Shown: positions 10,969 through 24,154, numbered from the stretch's first letter. The stretch is DNA of 64,000 bases from Fistulifera solaris (GCA_030295235.1 AP026142.1:372001-436000); one strand, 5' to 3'. The notes: generated by a model not told the origin, from the sequence alone. Translations and numbers: made by a program.

Positions 10969-10993
10969 GGGTGGAGGTGAGAACCTCCGGTTT
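10969..10993 (-). promoter_or_regulatory. Histone 3' stem-loop (H1)
   Basis: Minus strand AAACC-GGAGGT-TCTC-ACCTCC-ACCC, about 37 nt after the H1 stop. Confidence 0.85.
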
Positions 10994-11030
10994 TTGGAAA
11001 AAAAAGATCTTGTCCTTCCAAATACTTTAT

Positions 11031-11541
11031 TTACTTCTTTTCAGCGGCAGGAGCGGCCTTTTTCTTGGGAGCCGCCGGCTTGGCCTTAGTGGCAGCCGCC
11101 TTTTTCGGAGCCGCGGGCTTCTTCACTTTGGGGGCGGTGGCCTTCTTGGCGGCAGGCTGTTTAGCCTTGGTGGCCGTCTTTTTCGGGGCGGCCGCCTTCT
11201 TGGCGGTAGTAGTAGCCTTCTTCTTGGGCTTGGTAGGCGCCTTCTTGGTCGTCGTCTTTTCGCAGTCGTCTCCTTCTTCTTGGGTGCCTCCGCCTTGGCA
11301 GCCTTCTTGGCGGTCGCCGTCGCCTTCTTTTGAAATCGGCCGAGAGCTTGTAGGAATTCTTGTTCTGAACGAATTCACCCGAGGCCACACCGTTCTTCAA
11401 GGCTTGCAAGAAGGTTGCGTTTTGCCACTTCTTATCCTTGGGCATTTTGTCCTGCATGGCCTTCTTGATGGCAATCATACTCGAGCCATTGCGGTCTCCG
11501 AGGCCGGTAATGGCCGAAACAATTCCTGCTTTGTACGACAT
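11031..11541 (-). CDS. H1: Histone H1 (linker histone), frameshifted near 11330 and 11265; 5'UTR intron ~11555-11659
   Basis: Globular domain MSYKAGIVSAITGLGDRNGSSMIAIKK...GEFVQNKNSYKLS and a K/A/P-rich tail. Confidence 0.92.
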
Positions 11542-12272
11542 GATGTTGTTACTTCTGAAAGGCACTGCGGTCAGTTTCAATGCTCCATACAACTACAAGA
11601 GACGTCGCAGAGACTTCAACAGTAATCACTTGCCGCACCAAGACAAGGGATGCACTTACATGGTTGTTTTTGAATCAATCAACTGCTGTTACTATTGATG
11701 CAATGATGGCAAACTTTTCGTCGGTTGCCTTGCAAAAACGCGTCGGCCACCTCTCCCTCCGCCTGCGCCCAATTTTAAATCCTGCGCCAGGATACCTGCA
11801 CGTAGATCACTACGGAGTTGTACATACGTGACATTCTACATGAGTTTCAGTACAAGAATACGAAAATTTGACCTTTGTCCGAACGCGTCCGTTGGGCGCG
11901 CCAGTAGGGAGCTCAGTGACGAAATGAAGCGAGACGGCTTGCAGTCTGCGTTTCCGGCCTTTTGTCTGATGATGATTCAACTTCGAAGAACGAACATGGC
12001 TGTTGGATCGTGACGCCCTTGCAGAGTTGATGTGCGTCGCTAGCTTGTACGATGTGAAATTGCAGGGTGCAACCTAGGTCTAAGGGGTGAAAGAGTGCTT
12101 TTCATTAAAAAGTCGACAACTGAAAAGAGGCTTAGAAAAAAGATCTATTATTTCCAAGTTAATTAAAATATCAAACGCAATCGTTACCAGCTGTTTCCAA
12201 CATGAATTCCAAAACAATGCATATCTAAAGAGCAACGGTCTCGGAATCCAAAAAGTACGGCTTTGTGTGTTT

Positions 12273-12297
12273 GGGTGGAGGTAAAAACCTCCGGTTT
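12273..12297 (-). promoter_or_regulatory. Histone 3' stem-loop (H2B)
   Basis: AAACC-GGAGGT-TTTT-ACCTCC-ACCC downstream of the H2B stop. Confidence 0.85.
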
Positions 12298-12328
12298 GAA
12301 AATCTACAAAGTAGATCATGCCATGCAT

Positions 12329-12685
12329 TTAAGCACTGCTGGAGAACTTGGTCACAGCCTTGGTTCCCTCCGAGACGGCGTGCTTGGCCAATTCACCAGG
12401 AAGCATGAGGCGGACGGCAGTCTGGATCTCACGACTGCTGAGAGTGGCCTTCTTGCTGTAAGTAGAGAGCTTTCCGGCCTCAGTAGCAATGCGCTCGAAG
12501 ATATCGTTGATGAAGGAGTTCATGATGGACATACCCTTCTTGGAGATACCGGTATCGGGGTGGACCTGCTTGAGCACCTTGTAGATGTAAGAAGAGTACG
12601 TCTCGGTACGCTTCTTGCTTTTGGTCTTGGCACCAGCGGCCTTCTTGGGTGCCTTAGCAGATTGCTTGGAGGGAGTCTTAGCCAT
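12329..12685 (-). CDS. H2B: Histone H2B
   Basis: [35 protein letters not shown]...[17 protein letters not shown]. Confidence 0.99.
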
Positions 12686-13205
12686 GGTTGCGAAAGTTTG
12701 GGTTTGCGATAAACGAAAATGAAGTTCGAATAATTGTGAGAACTGAAGGAAGTCCTTGGCGTTGCGTTGCTGCGGTGGTTGTTTTGGGCGGGCCGTGCTG
12801 CAGGAGCATTTTTGGCCGGCGCACGCCAGCGGTTACACCAACTGCTAGTACTCGATGTACGCACACGTCAAAAATATACGAGGGATCTCGTACGTAGTCG
12901 TAAACGGTGTTCCTCGTACACAGTTGAAACCGCGCCACATCGTCTTGCTGTTCTACGTCTTGCAATTTTGGGCGCATCGAACTGGTAGAATTTCTACGGA
13001 GCGTACGTGTGTACCAGACTGTCGTAGAATCCATGCATTTCCTACGACACTTCACAGAACGTCGACCCCGGCTTGTTCTTCTCCGCCGCATTCACCCCAT
13101 CGTTGCCTCTGCTGCAAACGTCACAAATCACAAGCAACACTTGTTGACAACTCGTTTTTACATTATCAAAACAAAAGCAAAAACAAAACCAAAACTACTA
13201 TCACC

Positions 13206-13583
13206 ATGTCTGGAAAAGGAAAAGGAAAAGGAGGTCGCGGAGACAAGAAATCCACCAGCAGCTCCTCCAAGGCCGGCTTGCAGTTCCCCGTCGGTCGTAT
13301 CGGACGTTACTTGCGTCAAGGAAAGTACGCGACTCGTATGGGTGCCGGAGCACCCGTGTACTTGGCCGCTGTGCTCGAGTACTTGTGCGCTGAAATCTTG
13401 GAGTTGGCCGGAAACGCCGCTCGTGACAACAAGAAGACTCGTATTGTTCCCCGTCACATCACTTTGGCCGTGAAGAACGACGAGGAATTGAACAAGTTGT
13501 TGGGAGGAGTCACCATTGCCTCGGGAGGTGTGTTGCCCAACATTCACGCCGTCTTGTTGCCCAAGAAGACTGTTACCAAGTAA
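13206..13583 (+). CDS. H2A: Histone H2A (copy 1), divergent from H2B
   Basis: [15 protein letters not shown]...[12 protein letters not shown]...[15 protein letters not shown]. Confidence 0.99.
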
Positions 13584-13650
13584 GCAGCTAAGCAACTTGG
13601 TGTGTGCAGTTCCTACTGTTGGAGTCGAGCGTATGCCTCGTTTCCCTACC

Positions 13651-21866: not shown

Positions 21867-22260
21867 GATGCTGTGAATGGTGAGACTTTCGTGTTGTCCA
21901 GGGTCATTTGCATGGTTGGATGGAACATCAATGCTTTTTAGCGGTCATGGCATGCCATTTTGCGCTTCCGTTGATCATCACACAAAAATCTTGTATGGCT
22001 ATAAATTACGCCCTTATAGGACTGAGTGTACTATGTCTCACCCAATTGAACATTCAACACTCCTCTATGCGATTAGGCTTTTTCGACTTTTCGGCTTCGG
22101 TATGAGTCCTGTAGCTTGGATCTTTCCCAGTCTCGAGTTGCTTCGCTCAAGCTTCGCGGCTTTCCCCGACTGATGAGGCGCAGCAACGATCTGATTCTCC
22201 TTCATTACATTCACTTCGCTTCCAATCCACACGCAATTCTCTACTACTATGTTGACGCTC

Positions 22261-22506
22261 ATGAAAACTTTCTTTTTTCTTGTTGTGACGTTTGTGGCGA
22301 CCTCGGCCGAAATTCAAGCCACAGTGAACCGACTGGATTGTGAAGATGCCCACGACGGGTTGACGGTGCACTGCCAATTTGCGCTCGAACGCAAAGCGCA
22401 TCGCAAGAATCTCGATACATGCATTCACATTGGCAAGGAATCCTTTTGCGTCGAAGCCAAAATACAAACACTCATTCGGAAAATGCACGGCTATGACGAT
22501 CTCTAA
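22261..22506 (+). CDS. Small putative secreted/ER protein (81 aa, 4 Cys)
   Basis: Signal-peptide-like MKTFFFLVVTFVATSA, C-terminus YDDL. No recognised homolog. Confidence 0.4.
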   Translation: MKTFFFLVVTFVATSAEIQATVNRLDCEDAHDGLTVHCQFALERKAHRKNLDTCIHIGKESFCVEAKIQTLIRKMHGYDDL

Positions 22507-22800
22507 AGCCCAAGGGGAGCGACGAAACGCCTTGCAGTGTTGAAAACAAGTTGAACCTCACACGCCTCCTGGCTTGAAGAAGAAAGTACGTGTTTCTCTT
22601 ATATCCAGCATAAGTGGATAAATTATGATAAATGATAACAATAATTTGGGTTATCAAACATTTTTAATCGACCATGAAGTTGATGCGGTAGCGGACGTCC
22701 TTTATCGGAACGGTGAAAAAGGAATCCGTTACGAAGATTTATTCTTACTAGTCTACGAAAGTTTAGTTCCTCAAATTCACAGCACGGACTTTGTTGGTTT

Positions 22801-22825
22801 GGGTGGAAGTTAAAACTTCCGGTTT
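22801..22825 (-). promoter_or_regulatory. Histone 3' stem-loop (H2A copy 2)
   Basis: Identical to the copy 1 stem-loop. Confidence 0.85.
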
Positions 22826-22892
22826 GGTAGGGAAACGAGGCATACGCTCGACTCCAACAGTAGGAACTGCACACACCAAGTTGCTTAGCTTC

Positions 22893-23270
22893 TTACTTGG
22901 TAACAGTCTTCTTGGGCAACAAGACGGCGTGAATGTTGGGCAACACACCTCCCGAGGCAATGGTGACTCCTCCCAACAACTTGTTCAATTCCTCGTCGTT
23001 CTTCACGGCCAAAGTGATGTGACGGGGAACAATACGAGTCTTCTTGTTGTCACGAGCGGCGTTTCCGGCCAACTCCAAGATTTCAGCGCACAAGTACTCG
23101 AGCACAGCGGCCAAGTACACGGGAGCTCCGGCACCCATACGAGTCGCGTACTTTCCTTGACGCAAGTAACGTCCGATACGACCGACGGGGAACTGCAAGC
23201 CGGCCTTGGAGGAGCTGCTGGTGGATTTCTTGTCTCCGCGGCCTCCCTTTCCTTTTCCTTTTCCAGACAT
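22893..23270 (-). CDS. H2A: Histone H2A (copy 2), divergent from H3
   Basis: Protein identical to copy 1. Confidence 0.99.
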
Positions 23271-23682
23271 GGTGATAGTAGTTTTGGTTTTGTTTTTGCT
23301 TTTGTTTTGATAATGTAAAAACGAGTTGTCAACAAGTGTTGCTTGTGATTTGTGATGCAACCATGGACGAGAAAAGCGCGGAGGACGTGCCGAGCCCGAT
23401 TTTGCAAAAGGGCTCCAGTATATTTGCTACTGAAAGCTACATACATAGGAGCTAGTGCAAATGTTACATGGCAAGATGCGCCACTACCGTTCCTGTAGAT
23501 TTTGTACCAGTGTCTACGTAAAACTTTGACATCGAAACGTTGCCGCATTTGCGCGCCGTAATTTTTACGGGGCTGTCTCGTAGAAAAACAAATCATCGTT
23601 TTTCACGTTAAAACGGAATTCCTCTCCCCATCGCAGTCTCACAAATCGTCATCGATCAACTTTTCGTCAACCAAAAGCAAAC

Positions 23683-24093
23683 ATGGCCCGAACCAAGCAA
23701 ACCGCTCGTAAGAGTACCGGAGGAAAAGCTCCTCGTAAGCAACTTGCCACCAAGGCGGCTCGCAAGTCTGCCCCCACCACCGGAGGTGTGAAGAAACCTC
23801 ACCGTTACCGACCCGGAACTGTCGCTCTTCGTGAGATCCGTCGTTACCAGAAATCCACGGACCTTCTCATCCGCAAGTTGCCCTTCCAGCGCCTGGTCCG
23901 TGAGATTGCCCAGGACTTCAAGTCCGATCTCCGATTCCAGGGATCTGCTGTCCTGGCCCTCCAAGAAGCAGCTGAGGCTTACTTGGTCGGTCTTTTCGAG
24001 GACACCAACTTGTGCGCCATCCACGCCAAGCGTGTTACGATCATGCCCAAGGATATTCAGCTAGCTCGTCGTATCCGTGGAGAGCGATCGTAA
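23683..24093 (+). CDS. H3: Histone H3
   Basis: [29 protein letters not shown]...; intronless. Confidence 0.99.
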
Positions 24094-24129
24094 GTTCGTT
24101 ACTCCATGTTCCTCGACATGAGGTAATCC

Positions 24130-24154
24130 AAACCGGAGGTCTTTACCTCCACCC
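24130..24154 (+). promoter_or_regulatory. Histone 3' stem-loop (H3)
   Basis: AAACC-GGAGGT-CTTT-ACCTCC-ACCC. Confidence 0.85.

Follow-up and report, generated by a model that had tools for sequence, protein, structure and literature searches.

The histone mRNA 3′ stem-loop of animals (Rfam family Histone3, RF00032) has a stem of six base pairs (bp) and a loop of four nucleotides (nt), with a GG...CC base, a U-A top pair and U at the third loop position. It lies tens of nt past the stop codon of H1, H2A, H2B and H3 genes, between an A-rich 5′ side and an ACC(C) 3′ flank, and is followed at a short fixed distance by a short conserved box that contains purines. A stem-loop on H1 is the rule for replication-dependent H1 genes of animals. 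The accessible part of a preprint (10.64898/2026.10.14.759114) finds that histone genes are followed by stem-loops in 214 of 310 protozoan species, describes histone 3′ hairpins in Chlamydomonas and Volvox, and holds two positions, a G-C second pair of the stem and a U third in the loop, to be diagnostic for binding by SLBP (section 3). According to the accessible text of PMC10388802, the base-specific hydrogen bonds of SLBP in the human complex reach only the G of pair 2, and the accessible text of PMC11842555 gives 34 matches to the Rfam 'Histone 3′ UTR stem-loop' in the genome of Thalassiosira rotula. Our literature search found no description of diatom stem-loop sequences, of a downstream box or of histone mRNA ends in diatoms; the supplementary tables of the preprint, which possibly list diatom sequences, lay outside this search. 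Histone stem-loops of stramenopiles are already in print, and the DNA considered here, 64,000 nt of Fistulifera solaris (GCA_030295235.1 AP026142.1:372001-436000; hereafter the window, numbered from its first letter), carries an ordinary signal in a little-studied lineage: five hairpins, each after a histone gene, each followed by a CAAAG box.

A reading of the window made from the sequence alone (the sequence-only reading) had placed 25-nt hairpins at five sites, and these coordinates are correct; each site adjoins a histone gene confirmed by Pfam (H1, H2B, two of H2A, and H3). Pfam was run on 84 of the 96 window open reading frames (ORFs) of at least 90 amino acids, 12 short ORFs nested in longer ones being omitted, and the whole window was scanned against 4227 Rfam families at E≤1, the gathering cutoff of Histone3 being 34 bits. 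R1 in the following list is a covariance model built from 28 stem-loops of metagenome relatives and from no window sequence.

10969..10993 (stem 10973-10988), minus strand: H1 3′ stem-loop, AAACC-GGAGGU-UCUC-ACCUCC-ACCC (R1 28.1 bits, Rfam Histone3 27.9 bits, fold)
11031..11541, minus strand: histone H1 gene (Pfam Linker_histone at 11164-11541, E 1.3e-14; three-frame translation)
12273..12297 (stem 12277-12292), minus strand: H2B 3′ stem-loop (Rfam 29.6 bits, R1 25.4 bits, fold)
12329..12685, minus strand: histone H2B gene (Pfam Histone at 12332-12685, E 1.3e-19)
13206..13583, plus strand: histone H2A gene, copy a (Pfam Histone at 13206-13580 and Histone_H2A_C; translation)
13651..13675 (stem 13656-13671), plus strand: 3′ stem-loop of H2A copy a, GGAAGU-UUUA-ACUUCC (R1 45.1 bits, the top R1 match; fold)
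22801..22825 (stem 22805-22820), minus strand: 3′ stem-loop of H2A copy b, same sequence as copy a (R1 40.5 bits)
22893..23270, minus strand: histone H2A gene, copy b, inverted duplicate of copy a (Pfam Histone at 22896-23270; inverted repeat I1, 99%)
23683..24093, plus strand: histone H3 gene (Pfam Histone at 23683-24090, E 2.7e-48)
24130..24154 (stem 24135-24150), plus strand: H3 3′ stem-loop (Rfam 29.5 bits, R1 32.7 bits, fold)

The core pattern GGARGTNNNNACYTCC (GGARGT-N4-ACYTCC) has five matches in the 64 kilobases (kb) and none in 100 dinucleotide shuffles. With its flanks, as the strand-specific pattern CCGG-N12-CCACCC, it matches only these five hairpins without mismatch in the window; the 23 further matches obtained at two mismatches are at chance level (28 in total seen, 29 expected). 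In coordinate order the hairpins lie on the −, −, +, − and + strands, which is the strand of the adjoining histone gene in 5/5. All are found on the sense strand in the histone 3′ untranslated region, with the stem 42 nt from the stop at H1, 36 at H2B, 72 at both copies of H2A and 41 at H3. The minimum-energy fold at each site is the 6-bp/4-nt hairpin (−7.0 to −10.6 kcal/mol; z −2.4 to −3.6). The loops are UCUC at H1, UUUU at H2B, UUUA at both H2A sites and CUUU at H3, so loop position 3 is U throughout, and G-C at stem pair 2, the U-A top pair, the ACCC 3′ flank and the AAACC 5′ flank are common to all five. The change from G-C to A-U that had been noticed in the H2A stems is real, these being GGAAGU/ACUUCC and the stems at H1, H2B and H3 GGAGGU/ACCUCC.

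The two H2A hairpins are not independent, because both lie inside a 567-nt inverted duplication of 99% identity (13121-13687 and 22789-23355), and the H2A sites therefore count once, leaving four independent instances. The duplicated segment starts about 85 nt before the ATG and takes in the whole H2A unit as far as the last base, a G, of the CAAAG box; the copies are identical as far as this G and unrelated beyond it, and 9.1 kb of unrelated genes lie between them. No H4 gene was found in the window among the 84 ORFs given to Pfam. The H1 coding sequence (11031-11541, minus strand) shifts frame twice, each time at a short run of A (near 11325 and 11260), and then continues into a normal lysine/alanine-rich tail and a stop, followed by an intact stem-loop and an intact box; the frame changes look like homopolymer-length errors of the assembly, or else like the mark of a decaying gene.

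The five hairpins are members of the known histone mRNA 3′ stem-loop kind, in a lineage of diatom type. They share with the animal element all the features listed at the outset, including the downstream box, and in relatives H4 carries the stem-loop as well. They differ in the 5′ arm, which is GGCUCU in the Rfam consensus and GGAGGU or GGAAGU in the window, with GGA-N-N-U in relatives. The accessible part of the preprint places stramenopile stem-loops further downstream and describes them as less conserved, whereas those of the window lie 36-72 nt from the stop and belong to a class, called here GGA after the first bases of its stem, in which 28 relatives show no variation at 10 columns (stem, and positions 1 and 3 of the loop).

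These relatives come from metagenome contigs that were fetched with the window H2B protein. There were 597 pattern matches, of which 555 were confirmed, and the best 80 of these loci (69-92% identity; numbered with L below) were used, their H2A, H2B and H3 genes being placed by tblastn with the window proteins. A perfect GG...CC hairpin of 6 bp and 4 nt lies no more than 300 nt downstream of 61 of the 119 H2A, H2B and H3 genes that have at least 150 nt of downstream sequence, and 85 of the 119 have a hairpin if loops of 3-6 nt are permitted; where H2B identity reaches 80% or more, 38/54 genes have the hairpin with the 4-nt loop and 46/54 one with a loop of 3-6 nt. The closest relatives have the stems GGATTT (22), GGAATT (4), GGATAT (3) and GGATCT (1), and more distant ones GGTGTT (19) and other stems, including GGCTCT, seen twice in one distant locus, which equals the Rfam consensus stem. 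A further class has GGTGAA or GGTGTA stems with a 5-nt loop (or 7 bp and a 3-nt loop) followed by ACCACA (L012, L014, L016, L017 and L024); it escapes both the scan for 6-bp/4-nt hairpins and Rfam Histone3 at E≤1. The GGAGTT hairpin of L024, which has a G-U pair and no flanks and lies 169 nt downstream, was taken as chance and omitted from the class counts and from the model. In a quick H2B tree (116 columns, most forks unresolved) the window falls in a group of 15 rows with SH-aLRT 91, of which 14 are of GGA class and the remaining row is L015.

Although no window sequence entered R1, the five hairpins rank first when it is run on the window (E 6e-8 to 3e-3), the next match having E 1.9. On the 80 loci R1 gives 38 matches at E≤0.05, and the seven outside the training set all follow histone or histone-like sequence: H1 in L008, L019, L020 and L022, a lysine-rich H1-like tail unnamed by Pfam in L010, and H4 in L001 and L008. 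In the four H1 genes (L008 3990-4415, L019 3204-3590, L020 1668-2054 and L022 3860-4255, all minus strand) the ORF leaves the lysine-rich tail for junk, the stem-loop lying 190-270 nt beyond, and an intron seems to interrupt these genes late in their coding sequence. The R1 match of L010 lies 66 nt past a last exon that is rich in lysine.

For the helix, the five window sites were aligned with the 28 distinct GGA-class relatives that remain after collapsing 30 stem-loops, giving 33 rows. Pairs 1, 2, 3 and 6 are invariant in 33/33 rows (G-C, G-C, A-U and U-A), and pairs 4 and 5 vary: pair 4 is UA in 24 rows, AU in 6 and GC in 3, and pair 5 is UA in 24, GC in 5, AU in 3 and CG in 1. Covariation scores 0.299 in this alignment; shuffles give 0.045, and none of 500 reached the observed value. 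The double substitutions at pairs 4 and 5 preserve pairing and therefore point to selection on the helix. The sequence-only reading had proposed that purine-first pairs 3-5 make up a stem variant of diatoms in general, and this part of it has to be given up: the relatives mostly have GGAUUU (also GGAAUU, GGAUAU and GGAUCU), only the A-U at pair 3 is class-wide, and the GGAGG and GGAAG arms of the window are a species-level state of two freely covarying pairs. Its view of the elements as a histone-specific RNA hairpin of the animal and protist stem-loop kind stands. Both SLBP-diagnostic positions are present in 5/5 window sites and 28/28 relatives, and U occupies loop position 3 in 33/33 rows. 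Since the base-specific contacts of SLBP are made only at the pair-2 G, purines at pairs 3-5 need not disturb recognition, and the GGA-class stem is, judged by its sequence, compatible with recognition of SLBP type.

The 16-nt core of the hairpin is also a perfect DNA palindrome. Such palindromes might work as DNA, as generic hairpin terminators or as sites for a protein unrelated to SLBP, the likeness to the animal element being convergent, and the position of all five window sites under the Rfam cutoff agrees with this. We hold it to be very improbable, because the flanks are asymmetric (AAACC before; ACCC and CAAAG after) and always track the strand of the gene, because the double substitutions at pairs 4-5 keep pairing, because elements of two relatives reach the Rfam cutoff and because the loop U and the pair-2 G-C agree with the positions diagnostic for SLBP. 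Chance and DNA-palindrome readings were both rejected on strand asymmetry and covariation.

Downstream of every hairpin in the window there is a CAAAG box, which is a new observation here.

10955..10959, minus strand: CAAAG box of H1, 13 nt past the stem
12261..12265, minus strand: CAAAG box of H2B, 11 nt past the stem
13683..13687, plus strand: CAAAG box of H2A copy a, 11 nt past the stem, the final 5 nt of the inverted duplication
22789..22793, minus strand: CAAAG box of H2A copy b, directly after which homology with copy a ends
24162..24166, plus strand: CAAAG box of H3 (CAAAGA), 11 nt past the stem

With an offset of 10-13 nt past the stem, CAAAG occurs at all five window sites (11 or 13 nt) and in 25/30 GGA-class stem-loops of relatives, which is 23/28 distinct ones. 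The total of 28/33 distinct sequences compares with 0.2 on average, and 3 of 33 at most, in 2000 shuffles of the downstream 34-mers. No conservation is seen in the bases that separate stem and box. Among the relatives' stem-loops of other stem classes, 0/31 have the CAAAG box. Other protist lineages of the same metagenomes have different boxes at the same distance: in the GGTGTT class (GGUGUU in RNA), for example, GGAA occurs instead at offset 11-16 in 8/19. A box of GGAA or GGAAT type follows GGTGTT stems in L011, L031, L034, L036, L039, L059 and L060, and a GGTGTA stem in L063; L027 has a GAAAGA box in place of the GGAA type. In its accessible part, the preprint seeks the downstream element only as 'AAA' or 'AAGA'.

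The CAAAG box resembles the histone downstream element of animals in being conserved and in keeping a fixed distance to the stem, the arrangement of U7-type processing. By this analogy, the GGA-class stem-loop and CAAAG(A) 10-13 nt downstream may form a true bipartite signal, the box being read by an undiscovered U7-like RNA with a complementary 5′ end. We put this forward tentatively, as a proposal with somewhat less than an even chance of being right.

The box bears equally on another explanation, by which the hairpin binds an SLBP-like protein that controls stability, export or translation, the mRNA ends farther downstream through the usual cleavage and polyadenylation, and CAAAG is part of the signal for polyadenylation or termination. 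The accessible part of the preprint argues that some non-animal lineages combine stem-loops with features of polyadenylation (sections 3 and 10), proposes a mixed mode of stem-loop and polyadenylation for early-diverging fungi, and describes stramenopile stem-loops as less canonical. Searches of the window and of 14 related loci gave no U7 match. The accessible text of PMC11529991 gives diatom poly(A) signals as short as UAA, and for this reason such signals are not excludable by sequence. On the other side, a CAAAG kept at 10-13 nt in 28/33 distinct sequences fits a composite signal in which box and hairpin are read as one, the end of the duplicated H2A unit coincides exactly with the box, and homologues of LSM10 and LSM11 are reported in stramenopiles (section 7 of the preprint, in its accessible part). 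We regard ordinary polyadenylation as unlikely, with a chance clearly higher than that of a DNA palindrome.

The hairpin is probably a signal for 3′-end processing and for regulation of replication-type histone mRNA, of the animal stem-loop kind (RF00032). The transcribed RNA would fold as the 6-bp hairpin with a 4-nt loop, and we infer that a protein binds it. The pre-mRNA would be cut most likely a few nt 3′ of the stem, within or just past the ACCC flank, yielding a short and probably non-polyadenylated mRNA. CAAAG would then most likely complete a signal in two parts: it would correspond to the downstream element of animal histone genes and serve to place the cleavage factor, possibly with the help of a small RNA like U7.

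Several results weigh against a processing signal of this kind. At its curated gathering cutoff Rfam has 0 matches in the window. At E≤1 its only three matches are all Histone3, those at H2B, H3 and H1 in the first list (E 2e-4 to 9e-4); both H2A hairpins go unreported by Histone3 at this threshold in the window, so that scoring with the Rfam model, which the sequence-only reading had proposed, recovers three of the five and brings none of them to the cutoff (29.6 bits at the top, against 34). In the 14 related loci, Histone3 gives 22 matches, two of them, with 36.1 and 34.7 bits, at or above the cutoff. In the Histone3 consensus the 5′ flank reads ccAAA, in the window AAACC. The 100% pairing in the 33-row alignment is partly built in, because the rows were chosen as perfect hairpins; in a less biased test with the inner pairs left free (GGA..T....A..TCC), there are 31 matches after histone genes, and both inner pairs are Watson-Crick in 30/31, the sole other match being the flank-less hairpin of L024. 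The relatives are related paralogues and species, and the counts among them overstate the number of independent events. L015, a close relative whose H2B and H2A are 91% and 96% identical to those of the window and which shares the H2B tree group of L009, has a divergent H2A-H2B pair (H2A 1879-2232, minus strand; H2B 2928-3221, plus strand) without a stem-loop within 260-300 nt; this pair may be replication-independent or polyadenylated. No SLBP RNA-binding domain (PF15247) was found by Pfam in the 84 ORFs of the window. U7 (RF00066) has no match at E≤1 in the window or the 14 related loci, an absence that means little because only about 300 kb of DNA were searchable. A crude scan for an anti-box sequence with an Sm-like site, the latter motif not derived by a tool, gave 2 matches in 596 kb, both at unrelated loci and at chance level.

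Elsewhere in the window, a PAP-fibrillin-like protein (9772-10731, plus strand) has a start resembling a signal peptide that ends in AVSA and is followed by F, a form which we take to be the plastid-protein presequence of heterokont algae; it is the one feature seen in this analysis that speaks for a lineage of diatom type. A Utp13/WD40 gene (45170-48083, minus strand) and an EFTUD2-like gene for the GTPase of the U5 small nuclear ribonucleoprotein (51414-54460, plus strand) are both broken up into ORFs that overlap and differ in frame, perhaps through indels like those suspected in H1 or through very short introns. Three tandem 42-nt repeats inside a minus-strand ORF of 413 amino acids and a GTCT-type microsatellite in two blocks are located at 20879-21004 and 18379-18507.

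The overall picture of histone mRNA processing is unchanged by the window. It offers a clean, well-controlled case from an algal lineage otherwise reported only through bulk surveys, and the idea of a lineage-wide purine-swapped stem is corrected. For annotation, the Rfam cutoff misses all five window hairpins and the lineage-specific model R1 recovers them cleanly. The main lead is CAAAG at its fixed distance, which gives searches for a U7-like RNA in diatom genomes and small-RNA data a defined sequence to start from. If the bipartite signal is true, guide RNA and box would co-evolve lineage by lineage, and the record of U7 RNAs, which is confined to animals, would greatly understate the age and spread of U7-type processing.

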